From: a virus | Length of the DNA: 5,101 nt | Virus record (IMG/VR): IMGVR_UViG_3300014637_000001 | Location: 1 to 5,101 of that record | Reading direction: 5' to 3' (one strand) | In this document: one piece after another, positions 1-5,101 of the stretch | Layout: every line of letters begins with the position of its first letter | Numbering within the stretch: the stretch's first letter is position 1 | The notes under the pieces: model-generated | Told to the model about the DNA's origin: nothing | The model's input: only the letters and a program-made list of their open reading frames with translations | Database searches by the model: none | Made by a program: the position numbers and the translations under genes

Positions 1-118
1 ATATTATACATTATACGAAGCGGTAAAAATAACTATGTGTAATGTATAGTTTTATTTCGGTTTTCCGAAGATTTCAGGATGTGCAATGTTACTTGCACCA
101 TCCTCATCCAAGACATCA
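1..118. repeat. Direct terminal repeat, copy 1 (identical to 4984..5101); marks circular closure or a tandem junction of a 4,983-bp unit
   Basis: Base-by-base comparison of 1..118 with 4984..5101 shows 118/118 identity (offset 4983). Confidence 0.97.
76..104 (-). other. Imperfect hairpin immediately downstream of the gene V-slot ORF (possible transcript 3' structure or origin element)
   Basis: aggatgtgcaa (76-86) pairs with ttgcac-c-atcct (93-104): 6 bp, a 1-nt bulge, then 5 bp, with a 6-nt loop tgttac. A second mini-hairpin ttcgg-tttt-ccgaa lies at 56-69. No U-tract follows on the minus strand. Confidence 0.4.
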
Positions 119-122
119 ATCA

Positions 123-419
123 TTAAATTACCTTTGGCAACTCAACTTGTTTAACGACATACTTCATAGATTTTCCTGAAGTAACCATTTCAAATGTGAT
201 GTCAGCTTCTAACGGAAATTTATGTTGCTTAAGCAACACTAAATTAGTTCGGTCTTGCCAGTTAAATACTTCACAAGCATTGCCAACAGCATTACCTTGA
301 GATTGATCAAGCGGAACCTCACAGTACAAAGCTACATGATCATAATGACGACCATCGTCAGTTTTAAAATCAACAGCCTTAGCACCTAAGATTTTCACTT
401 TGTTTTTAAATTGCATCAT
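123..419 (-). CDS. 98-aa protein in the gene V position; putative ssDNA-binding protein (assigned by synteny only)
   Basis: ATG at 417-419 lies 2 nt after the Rep stop (TAG, 422-424). GGAGA sits 8 nt upstream. Size and position directly after the initiator match inovirus gene V / rstB-slot proteins. No motif I can recognise with certainty. Confidence 0.55.
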   Translation of the reverse strand: MMQFKNKVKILGAKAVDFKTDDGRHYDHVALYCEVPLDQSQGNAVGNACEVFNWQDRTNLVLLKQHKFPLEADITFEMVTSGKSMKYVVKQVELPKVI

Positions 420-421
420 TG

Positions 422-1579
422 CTACATTCTCCGAGCAGTTATAAGCACATGATCCAACCGCTTCGGATAAGCGAATTGATCAGAGCAAGAAATAATATTG
501 ATTAACTCTTCAGGTTCAAAAACCTGTTTAAAAACATTGATATACTTGCCATATTGGTGTTTAAGATTTTTAATAGCAGTATCAAAGTTAATGCGTGCAA
601 CCTTTTGAATTGTTTCAATTCTTGCAGGTTGAATATCTTCAGATAGAAATGCGAAACATGGATATGAGGCTATAAAATACTCACTTGGAGCCAACAACAT
701 ATCGAACGGTAAAACGCGATCAATTGATTTAAATTCAACTTCAGCACGTTGCCAGTTATCATTCGGATCACCCTCAGCACGACCTTTCTCGTACAAACGA
801 AGCATCTTGCCTGATTCACGTGCACCGACCATTAAAGTGCGTCCTTTACCGTTTGGACGTTTCCAATTGCCTTTATGTTCGATATTCGGCATACGGTTAC
901 CACAGCTAAAACCGCCTAAACCATCTTGCATATTGCCCCAGTCAACATTGATCTTTTTACCTTCAAAATCGTCATGTGCAATATCAACACGAGTTAATTT
1001 AGCTCGTTTGGCCATAGTTACTAAGAAGTTGTAAAGTCTTAATTCCCAACCACTTTTAGCAAAGTTGCAACCACGACCGTTGATCATAATTAAGATGGTA
1101 TTTCGTTGACCGCCAATGCAGACAAATCCGAAATCTTCACCTAGTACATAGCTTTCTTTATAGAAATTAAGACCACCATGACGGCATGCAGTCGTTGAGA
1201 ATCCAAAGATGTGGTGTAACTGGTGGTCCAGTTCTTCTACAGCAGCCGTCCAACGGTGTGTATCGATGATGTATTCGTCTTCATTCCAATACTTGTCACC
1301 TAAAGTCTCAATTCCGATTGTGAAATTTACCCAGTCAATCACGGCAATTTCATTGTCAGCAGGCAAACGGCATTGAACTGGTTTAACACCTGAAGATGTC
1401 ATCACCATATGAGCATATGGAATTGTGTATAACGAATGCTCTTGATACGGGAGATCGGCGTCTTGCAGTTGCGTATCGGATGTCTTTACCCCCATCTTAT
1501 TAATGGGGGTTACAACCATCGCATTTTTCAATCCCCCCGATAAAGCTGTGGGGTTTGGTTGTTTTTTATACTTATCCAT
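422..1579 (-). CDS. Rolling-circle replication initiation protein, Rep_trans (PF02486-like) family, as in CTXphi RstA and many inovirus pII analogues
   Basis: 385-aa ORF with GGGGA 5 nt upstream of the ATG. Motifs typical of the family as I recall it: KLTRVDIAHDDF, GRTLMVGARESGKMLRLYEKGRAEG, WQRAEVEFK. Confidence 0.88.
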   Translation of the reverse strand: MDKYKKQPNPTALSGGLKNAMVVTPINKMGVKTSDTQLQDADLPYQEHSLYTIPYAHMVMTSSGVKPVQCRLPADNEIAVIDWVNFTIGIETLGDKYWNEDEYIIDTHRWTAAVEELDHQLHHIFGFSTTACRHGGLNFYKESYVLGEDFGFVCIGGQRNTILIMINGRGCNFAKSGWELRLYNFLVTMAKRAKLTRVDIAHDDFEGKKINVDWGNMQDGLGGFSCGNRMPNIEHKGNWKRPNGKGRTLMVGARESGKMLRLYEKGRAEGDPNDNWQRAEVEFKSIDRVLPFDMLLAPSEYFIASYPCFAFLSEDIQPARIETIQKVARINFDTAIKNLKHQYGKYINVFKQVFEPEELINIISCSDQFAYPKRLDHVLITARRM

Positions 1580-1745
1580 TGCATTCCCCAGATTTAATAA
1601 TCATGTCGTAAGATTGACGAATAACAATCAATTCACGAAGAACTGGATCCGTAAATGCAACAGAATCGTTGTGCATGAGAGATTCAATTAAATCCATTAA
1701 CTCAGATCGATGTCTAACAATCAGATCCATTTGCTCTTTATCCAT
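1572..1745 (-). CDS. 57-aa hypothetical helical protein (hand-found ORF, absent from the ORF track)
   Basis: My translation: MDKEQMDLIVRHRSELMDLIESLMHNDSVAFTDPVLRELIVIRQSYDMIIKSGECNG. Its ATG (1743-1745) shares one base with the TAA of the upstream 93-aa ORF (TAATG). Its TAA (1572-1574) lies inside ATGGATAA at the start of rep. GGGGA sits 7 nt upstream of the ATG. It fills an otherwise non-coding 165-bp gap. Confidence 0.6.
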   Translation of the reverse strand: MDKEQMDLIVRHRSELMDLIESLMHNDSVAFTDPVLRELIVIRQSYDMIIKSGECNG

Positions 1746-2026
1746 TAGCAAATCCCCATAGAGCGAAAATTGTCATTCTCAGCTTTCAACATGTCGTAGT
1801 ACTCCGCTACTTTGGCAGACTTATAGCCCCACTCCACCATGCACATTTCTATGTGACGTAGAACAAGCTCCGACTCGTAAGCAGGATTTCCCCCAACAAC
1901 TAACGTGCAGGCTCTATCGAAAATGATCTTAGCCACGATCTCGAATGCTTGTTCTTTATCCATATATGATTTATCACAAATGATATTTTGTGTTTTTATA
2001 ACATCTAATTTGTGATTTAGCAACAT
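1745..2026 (-). CDS. Hypothetical small protein (93 aa maximal; possibly 72 aa from the internal ATG at 1961-1963)
   Basis: First ORF downstream of the divergent promoter region. Neither candidate start has an SD. A sigma70-like promoter (TTGCTA-17 nt-TATAAA on the minus strand, plus coordinates 2018-2023 and 1995-2000) overlaps the upstream ATG, which favours the MDKEQ start. Confidence 0.6.
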   Translation of the reverse strand: MLLNHKLDVIKTQNIICDKSYMDKEQAFEIVAKIIFDRACTLVVGGNPAYESELVLRHIEMCMVEWGYKSAKVAEYYDMLKAENDNFRSMGIC

Positions 2027-2036
2027 ATCATAAAAT
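1973..2036. promoter_or_regulatory. Divergent promoter/operator region between the replication operon (-) and the RHH regulator gene (+)
   Basis: Minus strand: TTGCTA (2023-2018), 17 nt, TATAAA (2000-1995). Plus strand: TTGTGA (2010-2015), 15 nt, TAAAAT (2031-2036). The TTTGTG(AT) motif occurs three times: ATCACAAA at 1973-1980 (inverted), TTTGTG at 1987-1992 and TTTGTGAT at 2009-2016. The first two form the palindrome cacaaa-N6-tttgtg. Confidence 0.45.
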
Positions 2037-2077
2037 ATAAATCAGATATGATGTGTCACCTTTTAGGAGTAAGACAA

Positions 2078-2272
2078 ATGGCAGTTACAGTTAGACTTAG
2101 AGACGAAGAAGAAGATATGGTCAAAGAAACGACCTTAGAAATGATGTTCGAAACAAAAATCCGAATTAAAGAATCGGATGTACTTCACACTTTAATAAGA
2201 AAGTATTTAAAAGACATCAAAACTGAAGATGTGATGAAGTACCGAGCGGAAGTACTTAAAAAAGACGATTAA
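2078..2272 (+). CDS. 64-aa ribbon-helix-helix (CopG/Arc-like) transcriptional regulator; candidate phage repressor (functional analogue of rstR)
   Basis: AGGAG (2065-2069) sits 8 nt upstream of the ATG at 2078. The N-terminus MAVTVRLRDEEE fits an RHH beta-strand, followed by two helices (DMVKETTLEMMFE; SDVLHTLIRKYLKD). It is the only + strand gene and is divergent from the rep operon. The track start at 2048 lacks an SD. Confidence 0.6.
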   Translation: MAVTVRLRDEEEDMVKETTLEMMFETKIRIKESDVLHTLIRKYLKDIKTEDVMKYRAEVLKKDD

Positions 2273-2319
2273 TTGTTTATATTGATCCAGAGTACTAACT
2301 GCCCCCTGCTCTAGCCTTC

Positions 2320-2418
2320 AGATCGCATAATGCCGACTATGTAAAAAAACGCCGATTTGCCCACAGGAATGGTTGCAAATCGGCTATGTTACATAATCTG
2401 GCATACATTATGCGAACT
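2320..2418. other. ~99-nt imperfect hairpin built from two inverted dif-like half-sites; candidate folded ssDNA attP (CTXphi-like), alternatively a packaging signal
   Basis: Plus strand 2320-2347: AGATCGCATAA-TGCCGA-CTATGTAAAAA. Minus strand 2418-2386: AGTTCGCATAA-TGTATGCCAGA-TTATGTAACAT. The arms pair 2320-2330/2408-2418 (10 of 11) and 2338-2344/2389-2395 (7 of 7). The central part pairs with 4-nt and 1-nt bulges. The inner stem is 2351-2360/2375-2384 (10 bp). Confidence 0.5.
2343..2384 (-). terminator. Rho-independent terminator for the 73-aa gene (minus strand); may also stop the convergent RHH transcript
   Basis: Perfect 10-bp stem gccgatttgc/gcaaatcggc with a 14-nt loop. On the minus strand it is followed by g + T7 (A7 at 2343-2349 on plus). 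It lies 43 nt downstream of the 73-aa ORF stop. Confidence 0.6.
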
Positions 2419-2426
2419 TTCAGTCA

Positions 2427-2648
2427 TTAATTTTTAGGCAAAGAATTATCTGCAAAGGTGGTTACTTGCTCTAAAATATCAAACGCTTTATTAATACTTT
2501 CTTTATCAGTTAAGTAACCACATTTCACTAAAACATCAACTGCACCAGATAACTCGTTTAGATTTCTTAAACAATCCAAAGGTAATAAAGAAGTATCTAT
2601 CACTTGGCTTGCTTTTTCTTCCAAATATTCAAAAACTTGTTTTGTCAT
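2427..2648 (-). CDS. 73-aa acidic, soluble hypothetical protein
   Basis: ATG at 2646-2648 with GGGGGA 3-4 nt upstream. It has its own upstream TATAAT (2700-2695 on minus) and downstream terminator. There is no hydrophobic segment, so it is not a pVI analogue. Confidence 0.65.
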   Translation of the reverse strand: MTKQVFEYLEEKASQVIDTSLLPLDCLRNLNELSGAVDVLVKCGYLTDKESINKAFDILEQVTTFADNSLPKN

Positions 2649-2662
2649 ATATCCCCCGTCAA

Positions 2663-2748
2663 AGTGTCTAGACTACGCCTTGAGACACTCAAAAATTATA
2701 CAAGATTTAATTGTTTACTCGATGTGTCTCAATTCCCCTGAAGACACT
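2663..2748. promoter_or_regulatory. Two copies of an inverted-repeat unit GTGTCT-N12/13-AGACAC in the pIII-like/orf73 intergenic region; candidate operators flanking a TATAAT -10
   Basis: agtgtct 2663-2669 pairs with agacact 2683-2689. gtgtct 2724-2729 pairs with agacac 2742-2747. Unit centres are ~60 bp apart. A minus-strand TATAAT at 2700-2695 lies between the two units. Confidence 0.4.
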
Positions 2749-2864
2749 TCTCTGTTAATTCTACGTCACACCGAAGAGCCGGTTTTTGTAATCAAAGAGG
2801 AAGATTTTCAAGTCTTTACAAATCCCAATTTGGATCGCGTTCAAGCCCCCTTTGTATATAATTT

Positions 2865-4283
2865 TCAGCGTATTGAATTGGTTGCTGACGTGGTTGTGTC
2901 TGCTCCAGCTAGAACCGCAGGCTTAAAGAAAATAAGAGCATTACAAACAGGTTGATAAGGTAATTCAATCGTATAACTTTGCCCCATCACCGTAAATTGA
3001 ACAGAATCCTTAGGACAATCATTTGAGCCTGTAAGAGTGACTTTTTCTGCTGATACATCATCATCATTAATTTCAGCTTCTTCTGGATCAGAATGATCTG
3101 GATCTTCTTTCATCCACTCATCTGTCTTTTTCCAGTCGTCATACCATTCGCACATCTTAAATGCCCATTCACAGAAGACAGGAAATTCAATAGAAATAGA
3201 CTGGCCACCAGTAGGATTACCATCAGCATCTTTTATTGGTTCTGATTTACCATCAGCAGTACCGCCATCATCTTTCCAAGAGCGGTCATTTACGTTAGGT
3301 TGTGATGAAGTTGGAGGATTTGAATAACGTGGATCACCAAAAGGTGCAGGCTGACCATCTGGAGTTAATGGAGCATTTTTAATTTTATCATCCATTTCCT
3401 TAGCAAGATCATCGCCAATACCCGTTGGATCATGCTTATATGCGTCTGCAACAGATTCATTCATTAAACCAGTGTTAACACGTGCATCAAGTGTTGGATC
3501 AACTGGGTCGGTGTAACCTTCACCGAGCATTGCAGCACCCAACAATTCAGGCGTTAAAGGTATCTTTTCTTTAGCAGCGTTAGGGTCAAAATCAGGATTT
3601 TTATATTGCAGAATTGCTGAAGAACCAGTAGTCGTAGTAGTAGCACCATTTTTCCAAGTGAATTTACAAGTTAAAGGTCTTTCAGTTGAAGAGCTATAAG
3701 TATAGTTACGGCCAGGTAAGACTTTATTTAAATACTGCATTTCGAGCATACAAGAATCTCGCGCAGTACATGAAGATGTATTAGCTTGTCCACCATTCTG
3801 AGCATAAACAAGGAATTCACATTCTTTATTAACACGCTTGTATTTAACGTATCCACCCTCAGTCATCACCCAACCAATGCCCTCGATTAGTTGCTGTACA
3901 GCATAAACACCAAGCAATTGCACACCCGGATTTCTTGCATAAAAAGCTACACGTTGAAGCATTGTTGCGCCGACTTTGCTAGCAGTAGGTACTGTTTCAG
4001 CAATAGCAATTTTAGTAACAGTCCTACTTTTAGCTGTTACAGGATCAGATTCTAGAAATGAACGCGCAGAACGTCCGTAGACACGTTTTGCGTAACCCTC
4101 ACGATTTTGCTGTAATTTAATTTCACGCTGTAGCCACCAGTCACCGTCATCAACTGCATTGGCTTCGTTCATTAGAATTATTGGTGAAAGGATAATTGAG
4201 ATGGATAAGTAAAAGCGGATTGTTGTTGAAATTGTTCTTTTTAAAACATTTTTATACCAATATAAATCATCATTAATAGCCAT
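2865..4283 (-). CDS. 472-aa secreted protein in the gene III slot; putative minor coat / host adsorption protein (pIII-like)
   Basis: Signal peptide (KNVLKR..FYLSISIILSPIILMNEANA|VDD). N-terminal domain with 4 Cys, then a long Pro/Asp/Gly/Thr-rich linker. C-terminal Cys/Trp-rich acidic domain (FCEWAFKMCEWYDDWKKTDEW) with a modestly hydrophobic tail (CNALIFFKPAVLAGA). It lies directly downstream of the major coat gene. No Walker A motif. Confidence 0.62.
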   Translation of the reverse strand: MAINDDLYWYKNVLKRTISTTIRFYLSISIILSPIILMNEANAVDDGDWWLQREIKLQQNREGYAKRVYGRSARSFLESDPVTAKSRTVTKIAIAETVPTASKVGATMLQRVAFYARNPGVQLLGVYAVQQLIEGIGWVMTEGGYVKYKRVNKECEFLVYAQNGGQANTSSCTARDSCMLEMQYLNKVLPGRNYTYSSSTERPLTCKFTWKNGATTTTTGSSAILQYKNPDFDPNAAKEKIPLTPELLGAAMLGEGYTDPVDPTLDARVNTGLMNESVADAYKHDPTGIGDDLAKEMDDKIKNAPLTPDGQPAPFGDPRYSNPPTSSQPNVNDRSWKDDGGTADGKSEPIKDADGNPTGGQSISIEFPVFCEWAFKMCEWYDDWKKTDEWMKEDPDHSDPEEAEINDDDVSAEKVTLTGSNDCPKDSVQFTVMGQSYTIELPYQPVCNALIFFKPAVLAGADTTTSATNSIR

Positions 4284-4314
4284 ATGTACGCCCCAATATC
4301 ACCCATGCTTCACC

Positions 4315-4358
4315 CCGTAAACGCGACTGCGAGCCCTCGCGCGTTTACGGTGGCTCGC
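4315..4358. other. GC-rich structured element between the coat and pIII-like genes (two competing stems)
   Basis: An 11-bp perfect stem ccgtaaacgcg (4315-4325) / cgcgtttacgg (4340-4350) with a 14-nt loop. gcgagcc (4329-4335, inside that loop) is complementary to ggctcgc (4352-4358). No U-tract follows on the coding (minus) strand. Confidence 0.5.
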
Positions 4359-4375
4359 ATGTAATACATTGGTTC

Positions 4376-4594
4376 TTAGAATGCAGAACGGATGTATTTA
4401 AATACTTTAATACCTAGCGGAATCAAAATTGCAGCAGCAGCAACAGCAGCCCCCGCAGTTGCAGCACCTGATAACTCACCAGTAATTGAAGTAGTATCTA
4501 CAGCAGCATTAGATGCAGCAGCAGCCCCCGCAGCAGACGCTACTACAGCAGCTTGTTTTAAACGTTGAATCATTGCTTGTTTTTTAGTGTTCAT
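4376..4594 (-). CDS. Inovirus major coat protein precursor (pVIII-like), 72 aa
   Basis: AAGGAG sits 6 nt upstream of the ATG at 4592-4594. Leader MNTKKQAMIQRLKQAAVVASAAGAAAASNA ends in an A-x-A-type cleavage site. The ~42-aa mature part has an acidic N-terminus (AVDTTSITGE), an Ala-rich hydrophobic core and a basic C-terminus (KVFKYIRSAF), which is the classic pVIII layout. The track TTG start at 4615 is unlikely. Confidence 0.88.
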   Translation of the reverse strand: MNTKKQAMIQRLKQAAVVASAAGAAAASNAAVDTTSITGELSGAATAGAAVAAAAILIPLGIKVFKYIRSAF

Positions 4595-4604
4595 GATGAA
4601 CTCC

Positions 4605-4799
4605 TTACTTTTCAAAATTTTGCACCCGTATGACTTTTATGGCCCATACGACTGCGAGACATAACCAAAAAGCGCCCCCAATTTGTGTTGCTTCGGCGTA
4701 GCTCATTGGTGGTAAATAAAGGTCAGCTTGACCCCATGTAAGACAGGTCTGCACCCCATTAGCATCGGATGACGATAATTGCTTACAGACCATATCCAT
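4605..4799 (-). CDS. 64-aa small membrane protein with one C-terminal TM helix; possible minor virion or assembly protein (pVII/pIX slot)
   Basis: ATG at 4797-4799 with GGGGA 9 nt upstream. TM segment IGGAFWLCLAVVWAIKVI. Its stop TAA (4605-4607) overlaps the coat gene SD (agTAAGGAG), implying coupled expression. Confidence 0.6.
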   Translation of the reverse strand: MDMVCKQLSSSDANGVQTCLTWGQADLYLPPMSYAEATQIGGAFWLCLAVVWAIKVIRVQNFEK

Positions 4800-4819
4800 T
4801 TCTTAAAATCCCCAATAAA

Positions 4820-4855
4820 TTGCTGGCTTGCGTTCCCGCCCCCAAAAGCCAGCAA
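4820..4855 (-). terminator. Stem-loop just upstream of the structural module (terminator/attenuator-like, or a DNA-level element)
   Basis: A 10-bp stem ttgctggctt (4820-4829) / aagccagcaa (4846-4855) with a G/C-rich 16-nt loop. On the minus strand it is followed by TTTATT and then the GGGGA SD of the 64-aa ORF. Confidence 0.4.
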
Positions 4856-4860
4856 ATCTG

Positions 4861-4950
4861 TTATTTACACTTATAAAAATGGATGCAGTAACTTGAATGT
4901 TTTGTAAACCCTGCACCGCACTTCTTGCATTTATAAACGTATTCTGTCAT
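4861..4950 (-). CDS. Possible 29-aa mini-ORF with a C2HC zinc-finger-like pattern (low confidence as a real gene)
   Basis: My translation: MTEYVYKCKKCGAGFTKHSSYCIHFYKCK. It fits Y-x-C-x2-C-x3-F-x5-Y-x2-H-x3-C. The stop lies 5 nt before the 4820-4855 hairpin. No SD upstream (tatttttaatATG). Confidence 0.3.
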   Translation of the reverse strand: MTEYVYKCKKCGAGFTKHSSYCIHFYKCK

Positions 4951-4976
4951 ATTAAAAATACACGCAAGTTATTGAT

Positions 4977-5004
4977 TTTTAACATATTATACATTATACG
5001 AAGC
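4977..5004 (-). other. 28-bp dif-like XerC/XerD recombination site (candidate dsDNA attP)
   Basis: Minus strand reads GCTTCGTATAA-TGTATA-ATATGTTAAAA. Against E. coli dif GGTGCGCATAA-TGTATA-TTATGTTAAAT this is 8/11, 6/6 and 9/11, total 23/28. The TTCGTATAA XerC arm resembles Acinetobacter pdif-type sites as I recall them. The site spans the circular junction, so 1..21 repeats its XerC-side part. Confidence 0.6.
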
Positions 5005-5101
5005 GGTAAAAATAACTATGTGTAATGTATAGTTTTATTTCGGTTTTCCGAAGATTTCAGGATGTGCAATGTTACTTGCACCATCCTCATCCAAGACATC
5101 A
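4984..5101. repeat. Direct terminal repeat, copy 2 (identical to 1..118)
   Basis: Same comparison as copy 1. The repeat runs to the last base of the window, so its true length could be limited by the window edge. Confidence 0.97.

Follow-up and report, generated by a model that had tools for sequence, protein, structure and literature searches.

A linear dif-like site as apparent secondary recombination site and module junction in Acinetobacter inoviruses that also carry a foldable attP

What might a filamentous phage do with two dif-like sites, one of them linear and the other complete only once folded? The question is raised by a stretch of 5,101 nucleotides from a virus, i.e., positions 1 to 5,101 of IMG/VR record IMGVR_UViG_3300014637_000001, the whole of which is referred to here as ‘the window’. 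The linear site is designated LIN, a 28-bp, double-stranded Xer site, and the foldable site is designated simply as the hairpin. The two kinds of site are known separately. It is one phage carrying both, that is, a CTX-type site together with a canonical double-stranded site, which is what is new here.

The window and its two sites

The window is a circle of 4,983 bp, with positions 1-118 identical to 4984-5101. LIN spans the ends of that circle (4977-4983 plus 1-21), such that the copy at 1-21 is the same DNA as that at the window's other end, and the arbitrary start of the contig (window position 1, or 4984) falls within the LIN XerD arm. All sizeable genes are carried by the minus strand. 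Read along that strand, small regulators (~1572-2272) lie between the hairpin and a Rep_trans initiator (422-1579), which is followed by a 98-aa, ssb-like analogue of gene V (123-419), with the latter two genes, both with Pfam and PHROGs matches, forming the core of a replication half (123-1579). This core along with the regulators makes up the hairpin-to-LIN segment that is duplicated at the ends of prophage arrays. The structural half (2427-4950), located between LIN and the hairpin, consists of a 29-aa zinc-finger micro-ORF of C2HC/C2H2-like form (MTEYVYKCKKCGAGFTKHSSYCIHFYKCK; 4861-4950), a 64-aa ORF (4605-4799), the 79-aa Coat_B major coat protein as recognized by Pfam/PHROGs scans (4376-4615), a 472-aa TspB-like adsorption protein (2865-4283) and a 73-aa ORF (2427-2648). 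That the two sites divide the circle into a replication half (regulators, Rep and ssb-like gene) and a structural half had been said already in a preliminary description of this DNA, and that division holds.

Pfam and PHROGs scans of the ten largest ORFs returned only Rep_trans, Coat_B, and phage structural or unknown families, with no integrase or transposase domain among those ten. [quoted passage not shown] Homologues of its Rep at 60-99% identity are nearly all from Acinetobacter, in agreement with the host that had been suggested from the sequence, and the window is the genome of an Acinetobacter inovirus. Megablast of the entire circle against GenBank phages gave no match, and exact look-up of the window's Rep and 79-aa coat ORF gave no record; relatives were reached via P0001, a Rep that is 99% identical to the window's. 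CRAphi of A. baylyi ADP1, the Af phages, and M02 of A. baumannii belong to the same phage group, and both M02 and the ADP1-like prophage carry LIN as well as the hairpin, as does the window.

The window differs from those phages in lacking pVI (DUF2523) and Zot. It is collinear with A. baumannii prophages but without ~1.5 kb, consisting of the TspB 3' end, pVI/DUF2523, and Zot residues 1-384, and without another 0.43 kb as well, and the 3' end of its TspB-like gene is fused to the last 30 zot codons. By this comparison the window is a defective deletion derivative of an inovirus of ~6.8 kb, one whose assembly would need a helper phage. The deletion points are at window 2434-2436 and 2905-2906, as compared with 11387-12881 and 13351-13786 of an A. 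baumannii prophage (L088), with a 75-aa gene also lost. The fused 472-aa protein recurs on an independent Logan contig (L086).

LIN itself is found on the minus strand at 4977-5004 and reads GCTTCGTATAA-TGTATA-ATATGTTAAAA, with XerC arm at 4994-5004, centre at 4988-4993, and XerD arm at 4977-4987 in plus-strand coordinates. It matches E. coli dif at 23 of 28 positions, including all six of the central bases, exactly as described preliminarily. Alignment with the dif of candidate hosts, which had been proposed as a check, gives 25 of 28 with the published A. baylyi ADP1 sequence (PMC2731167; 2009) and 24 of 28 with a reconstructed A. baumannii dif. A search for E. coli dif allowing three mismatches misses a site with five, and a shuffle test was used: with the circle shuffled 2,000 times such that dinucleotide counts were kept, the highest score against each of the three dif sequences was on average 17.3-17.6 and at most 22, i.e., none of the 2,000 attained the observed score, and the similarity consequently stands up to the comparison with shuffled sequence that had been suggested as a means of refuting it. 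The TGTATA centre of LIN is identical to that of host dif and the inner ATAA of its XerC arm is conserved. The XerD arm matches the host arm at 9 of 11 positions (7 of 11 in the ATATGTAAATA subtype), and departs from dif by a conserved T-to-A change at XerD-arm position 1.

The foldable site is found, also on the minus strand, at 2323-2415. Its arm A, (AGT)TCGCATAA-TGTATG-CCAGATTATGTAACAT, pairs with an inverted arm B, and folding of 2300-2440 as DNA yields -27.5 kcal/mol (z = -4.1 relative to shuffles). The site is conserved in related phages, with loop and stem sequences that differ. As two inverted dif-like sites that fold stably on what is presumed to be the packaged strand, 2323-2415 is a good CTXphi-type attP. 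LIN and arm A both run XerC to XerD on the minus strand, that is, they are directly oriented.

Prophage junctions and array layout

On the contigs that were reached via P0001 the phage is integrated, and the linear site is present in two forms. The internal form, GATTCGTATAA-TGTATA-ATATGTTAAAA, is followed by phage DNA, and the form found at the boundary between phage and chromosome, GATTCGTATAA-TGTATA-TTATGTTAAAT, is followed by host DNA adjoining an RND efflux operon. Internal copies from A. baumannii, ADP1-like A. baylyi, A. bohemicus, and metagenome contigs read XerC arm-TGTATA-ATATGT[TAAAA or AAATA], and the right ends of arrays read phage XerC arm-TGTATA-TTATGTTAAAT with non-phage DNA beyond. 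The exact 28-mer of the window is internal in six A. baumannii genomes, found via the TspB-like protein, with the complete chromosome AP023077 among them. Four of these (L088, L089, L092, L093) have arrays that terminate on the right with GCTTCGTATAA-TGTATA-TTATGTTAAAT. In the remaining two (L090, L091) what follows directly on the LIN XerC arm is the hairpin centre belonging to a second phage, one with a Phage_CRI-type Rep, indicating that the LIN/dif hybrid itself serves as an attachment site. A. baylyi displays both internal and junction forms (type strain, L010, and an ADP1-like complete genome), and the junction form is seen, each time with its own XerC-arm variant, in A. bohemicus, A. 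halotolerans, A. tjernbergiae, and a contig labelled as a Ureibacillus MAG (L008), which probably is mislabelled.

These two forms can be told apart by a single base. Among loci retrieved through proteins, and so unbiased by site, XerD-arm position 1 is A in each of the 22 phage-internal sites, which share the flank ATCAAYAACTT, and is T in each of the 21 host-junction sites (19 with TTATGTTAAAT, 2 with TTATGTCAAAT), where the DNA beyond is non-phage. This A/T switch implies that crossover always occurs inside the XerC arm plus centre, as Xer recombination predicts. On the basis of such comparisons LIN would seem to be a genuine Xer-type site, and one that is used in vivo.

Left ends are different, as they derive from the hairpin. 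There the host contributes its XerC arm, TTCGTATAA, and what follows is arm A of the hairpin, from its centre through its 3' part, with internal hairpins having TTCGCATAA. In three arrays the two copies of the 2.2-2.5-kb replication half are identical except for the T/C by which TTCGTATAA differs from TTCGCATAA. By analogy with CTXphi, these left junctions look to be the signature of an XerC-mediated single-strand exchange between dif and a folded single strand. Such integration has a primary right junction as well, in which the hairpin XerC arm plus phage flank are joined to the host centre and XerD arm. That junction was predicted and then found, in a metagenome scan, as the Zot C-terminus, ...ATGAA-AGTTCGCATAA-TGTATA-TTATGTTAAAT, followed by A. 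baumannii-type host flank (L203); a single crossover on the XerC side of the hairpin is what is seen, that is, both at the left junctions and in L203. Another metagenome match to the primary junction (L204) turned out to be an unrelated, GC-rich organism's own dif. Relatives that possess LIN itself or a near-identical site are located at the chromosomal dif of A. baumannii, A. baylyi, A. bohemicus, and others, and bear dif/attP hybrids at both of their ends, as IMEXs do.

The search for attL and attR hybrids that had been recommended preliminarily thus has a divided outcome, with right-hand LIN/host hybrids present in several species but a left-hand equivalent missing. That is, a junction between a host XerC arm and the LIN XerD arm is absent from all fetched loci, matches there being phage-internal, and its A. 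baumannii version is absent from the IMG/VR scan. This argues that LIN is not the primary integration site, as the preliminary description had allowed it might be.

All arrays, as seen directly in the assembled loci, start at the hairpin and end at LIN. One form consists of a replication half (hairpin to LIN), a structural half, and then a second replication half, and is seen in A. baumannii, in ADP1-like genomes, and in L002/L003. The other, seen in L001 and L027, is apparently a replication half alone, though these are draft or MAG assemblies that possibly skip a repeat-bounded loop. Arrays consequently amount to ~1.3-1.4 genomes or instead to ~0.4-0.5 genome, but never to an integer number, implying that two different sites must have been used. 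This fits the suggestion, made earlier for the window, that one site might integrate and the other resolve or excise.

Several observations can be made as to assemblies and host flanks. A number of IMG/VR contigs (e.g., L096, L106, L138, L166) contain LIN, structural genes, and hairpin only, which is what an assembler can produce when the replication half is a repeat, and on that view the circular window too may represent the loop of a collapsed array and not an episome. The GenBank record of phage M02 (L094, OQ693633) has LIN, the hairpin, and a junction-type site with host-like flank (at 113, 3891-3982, and 5929), and that ‘complete circular genome’ probably takes in a joint between prophage and host that was left by collapse of an array. 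In the ADP1-like chromosome CP104736 (L205), the phage array of which is presumably CRAphi, the host XerC arm ACTTCGTATAA is located at the left junction, 9.6 kb from the LIN/host hybrid. That hybrid (18558-18585 of L205) is GATTCGTATAATGTATATTATGTTAAAT, i.e., the sequence which was published in 2009 as ADP1 dif.

To the right of dif in several non-baumannii Acinetobacter there are two palindromes and then, ~100 nt away, an inverted dif-like site reading TTTC[T/G]GCATAA-C[T/G]TATA-TTATGTT... (L010 11637-11660, L011 11643-11666, L027 11630-11653, L205 ~18683-18706, and, as three copies, L015). This is the same geometry as the left junction of a folded attP, such that the ‘host’ flank may be an old integrated element. 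Within 10 kb to the right of the A. baylyi junction no further dif-like site was found. In L015 (6750-16390; Acinetobacter sp. A7.4) the second dif-like site is found at 7782, 9149, and 16246. The spacing of 1,367 bp between the first and second of these represents short tandem units, of which other repeats indicate three copies, and the ~7.1 kb between the second and third holds a phage with a Rep at 60% identity to that of the window. It seems to be the second dif-like site, rather than dif, that is used in this lineage.

Alternatives, and a possible two-site life cycle

LIN, as read from these sequences, quite probably is a functional double-stranded XerC/XerD site of Acinetobacter filamentous phages, employing host Xer with no integrase encoded. 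How it might be employed can be described as follows. The packaged single strand would fold at 2323-2415 into a dif-like hairpin, and XerC would swap one strand with chromosomal dif, as in CTXphi, yielding the left junction (host XerC arm/hairpin centre) along with the primary right junction (hairpin XerC arm/host centre plus XerD arm). LIN then would lie ~4.5 kb upstream of a regenerated dif, in direct orientation and possessing the same TGTATA centre, and would recombine with it, either removing the distal structural half or instead releasing and re-inserting whole phage circles. The array would end, as a result, with a replication half, the terminal 17 bp of which (the XerC arm and centre of LIN) run directly into the host XerD arm, and this LIN/host hybrid would then be both the cell's dif and the attachment site for further phages. 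The resulting layout, i.e., replication half-LIN-structural half-hairpin-replication half, places two replication regions to either side of a full genome, as in CTXphi-RS1, and would permit a complete circle to be excised by Xer. Different phages, when stacked at dif, would share LIN between their ssb-like and coat genes, with LIN x LIN exchange able to reassort modules.

The junction sequences, array layouts, and mosaic breakpoints are observed. In this scheme we infer Xer to be the enzyme, as we do also the order of steps, their reversibility, and the identity of the packaged strand. XerCD of A. baumannii does recombine dif, in an FtsK-dependent manner (PMC11705084). Tandem hairpin integrations combined with LIN x dif deletion give the same arrays as does re-integration of circles via LIN. 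Counting against efficient LIN x dif recombination is that an internal LIN and a hybrid dif that are 6.8 kb apart should collapse, yet such arrays are seen frequently. It may be that the LIN reaction is dampened by the conserved T-to-A change, which adjoins the position of XerD cleavage. The life cycle as a whole, that is, irreversible hairpin integration after which LIN allows XerCD to excise and re-insert circles, leaving a replication-half scar as working dif and swapping modules between stacked phages, is offered tentatively, as something that might well be so but which we would stop just short of expecting.

Several other explanations of LIN can be weighed against this one. That LIN resembles dif by chance has a vanishingly small likelihood: the window is 39% G+C and dif is AT-rich, but no shuffle in 2,000 was as good, LIN is kept in more than 100 related contigs, and hybrid junctions map to it, which together refute the idea. 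LIN instead might be a primary attP of the VGJphi kind, with the double-stranded replicative form entering a naive dif and the hairpin being secondary. LIN does have both arms and a centre that is identical to dif, and its XerC/host XerD hybrid is exactly the right junction that would be expected. The matching left junction, however, is in no array examined, nor, as the A. baumannii version, in the IMG/VR scan; left ends all stem from the hairpin, and one primary right junction of hairpin type has been seen (L203), all of which leave this explanation disfavoured and unlikely. Less likely still is that LIN is kept for some other purpose, such as replicative-form dimer resolution, regulation or packaging, or as a Xer decoy, with LIN/dif joints arising through RecA or illegitimately via the shared 15-17 bp. 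Its position is intergenic, between the ssb-like gene and first structural ORFs, which is where inoviruses keep cis-acting signals, and dimer resolution is compatible with dif recombination. The same joint nevertheless recurs independently across species having GCTTCG, GATTCG, ACTTCG, ACTGCG, ATTACG, and ATTTCG XerC arms, the point of switching is invariably between the arm plus centre and XerD-arm position 1, and 15 bp is far below the length of an efficient RecA substrate.

A further explanation concerns an inverted, imperfect copy of the LIN centre and inner XerC arm (tgtgtaatgtata; plus strand, 5019-5031, equivalent to 36-48), which together with LIN could form a single-strand hairpin showing XerC arm and centre as a second folded site. 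The copy is present as described preliminarily, though shifted by one base from the 5020-5032 given there. Pairing of the copy with 4988-5000 on the plus strand involves 11 Watson-Crick and 1-2 G-T pairs, with the G-T pairs becoming C-A mismatches on the minus strand, which is the coding strand and presumably the one packaged. Considered purely as a repeat, the copy is moderately unusual, equalled in 22 of 5,000 local shuffles with a 17-nt arm-plus-centre target and in 102 of 5,000 with the whole site, and an 11-of-12 inverted match less than 20 nt away, seen in 0.4-2% of local shuffles, speaks for its having a function. So too do inverted repeats of 6-8 bp that abut the XerC arm in several other lineages (5-8 bp across other lineages as a whole) and, in L087, a perfect 20-bp palindrome that includes lineage-specific arm bases. 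The predicted fold, however, is indistinguishable from that of shuffles (-3.4 kcal/mol and z = 0.06 for the minus strand; -5.2 kcal/mol and z = -0.83 for the plus), no XerD arm is offered, and the copy is kept only within the same Rep/ssb lineage, where the whole upstream region is 94-96% identical. Over 30 lineages, inverted repeats by the XerC arm have a mean stem of 5.7 bp versus 4.6 bp in shuffles, a weak enrichment. A short hairpin that presents the XerC side, as had been envisaged, thus finds little backing in its stability or its single-lineage conservation, and we consider it rather unlikely to be functional.

LIN as a module boundary, and known systems

The window is ~97% identical to an A. 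baumannii prophage (L088) up to LIN and ~82-86% identical directly beyond, and more generally the replication-half core has 96% DNA identity to A. baumannii prophages as far as LIN. In the L002 phage, homology to the window ends 15 nt past LIN. In L087, a phage with a Rep of a different family (Phage_CRI), homology to the window begins inside LIN and continues through the structural genes. Loci that were compared have window-like flanks upstream only, downstream only, or on both sides, with homology stopping at LIN, and among more than 100 related contigs the flanks of LIN assort independently, implying that LIN is a module breakpoint as well. Natural variants with swapped halves, which had been proposed as something to look for, therefore do exist, with their breakpoint at LIN. 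Xer exchange between LIN copies of dif-stacked phages would give exactly such a mosaic pattern, and homologous recombination within the conserved 28 bp could also supply the breakpoint.

The possession of both site types, which initially was thought unusual, instead is standard in a large group of Acinetobacter inoviruses, as it is found with GenBank phage M02 and in most of the LIN-bearing contigs from an IMG/VR scan. That scan yielded 108 contigs with internal-type LIN (64 with CRI Rep, 22 with Rep_trans, 22 with neither detected), of which 78 match the hairpin pattern, including a few false matches that start at LIN itself. LIN can be described as what appears to be a secondary recombination site and module junction within a two-site system that is standard for this group.

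Two further observations concern the neighbourhood of these sites. The regulator region (window 1590-2300) is ~80-86% identical or else unrelated in phages with Rep and ssb-like genes that are 96% identical, and is matched at 94-99% by L141, L190, and L136. It is a third exchangeable module, probably for immunity, and is reminiscent of rstR of CTXphi. The zinc-finger micro-ORF begins 26 nt 3' of LIN, and in related contigs a short reading frame (20-60 codons) comes after LIN at 131 of 135 sites. The majority of these ORFs retain C-x2-C...H-x3-5-C despite having diverse sequences, with a hydrophobic peptide of 36-37 aa replacing the zinc-finger ORF in a minority lineage (including the L002/L099 type). 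Matches of the micro-ORF in Pfam are to zf-C2H2 and are all sub-threshold. That the encoded micro-protein is an accessory or control factor for the LIN reaction is speculation.

Among known systems, the attP of VGJphi is like LIN in being a linear 28-bp dif mimic with both arms on a double-stranded phage genome without integrase, in generating dif hybrids at a prophage end, and in being potentially reversible in its reaction. LIN has recognizable XerC and XerD arms of this kind, with its 24-25 of 28 matches to Acinetobacter dif. The VGJphi centre, though, differs from dif on its XerD side, with only XerC exchange productive, whereas the LIN centre is the host TGTATA and LIN deviates instead at XerD-arm position 1 (A versus T). 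Unlike with VGJphi, where attL and attR both derive from one site and the prophage is a single genome opened at attP, only a right hybrid derives from LIN, there is no left hybrid, and LIN coexists with a CTX-type hairpin in the same genome. The attP of TLCphi, by comparison, has a defective XerD arm and relies on an activator, XafT (DUF3653). LIN is like it in that recombination is between a double-stranded site and dif, after which a functional dif is available to the next element of an array, but LIN keeps its XerD arm, with 9 of 11 positions matching the host, and a small zinc-finger ORF is always adjacent in place of XafT, with no DUF3653/XafT-like protein detected in a scan of the window's ORFs. 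LIN thus is not of TLCphi type. Of the proposal that LIN is a dsDNA XerCD site of VGJphi/TLCphi type, what survives is that it is double-stranded with hybrids mapping to it, and what does not is the hallmark centre of VGJphi along with the features of TLCphi.

Resemblance to CTXphi lies with the hairpin, as in attP(+) too it is two inverted dif-like sites that fold on a single strand, with left crossover on the XerC side; we know of no second, linear site in CTXphi. CTXphi-RS1 is like the Acinetobacter arrays in having an extra replication/regulation unit downstream of a full prophage. RS1, however, is a separate satellite which is integrated through its own hairpin, whereas the extra replication half of the Acinetobacter arrays stops at LIN and has the same sequence as the copy upstream, and therefore looks to be a product of LIN recombination rather than a separate element. 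The pdif modules, to which the window also had been likened, are bounded by an XerC/D site and an inverted XerD/C site, the centres being usually of GGTGTA type, and are carried by Acinetobacter Rep_3 plasmids. They have in common with LIN the same genus, the same recombinases, and Xer sites that bound exchangeable modules, but the geometry of the window is wrong for one: its sites are directly oriented, one has two complete arms only in its folded state, the centre is TGTATA as in the chromosome, and the replicon belongs to an inovirus.

Papers on Acinetobacter filamentous phages have noted flanking replication modules and have suggested XerCD (PMC11209303; PMC12285184), with neither of the two sites identified in them and the flanking duplication unexplained. 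No description of a phage combining both site types was found in the literature, the original CRAphi account aside, and a two-site Xer life cycle in Acinetobacter inoviruses has, to our knowledge, not been described. The sites considered here would supply a base-pair explanation for those duplicated replication modules, reported earlier from filamentous prophages of A. baumannii and A. baylyi without a mechanism. The working dif of many Acinetobacter strains, the published ADP1 dif included, is a phage/host hybrid. In combining the two best-known ways of hijacking XerCD, a single phage would represent a natural system for the Xer field, one in which the exit of a CTX-type prophage, and module exchange, are testable both in naturally transformable ADP1 and in a priority pathogen. 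If the two-site life cycle is true, then the ‘no way out’ problem of CTXphi-type integration would be one that is solved by the phage itself.
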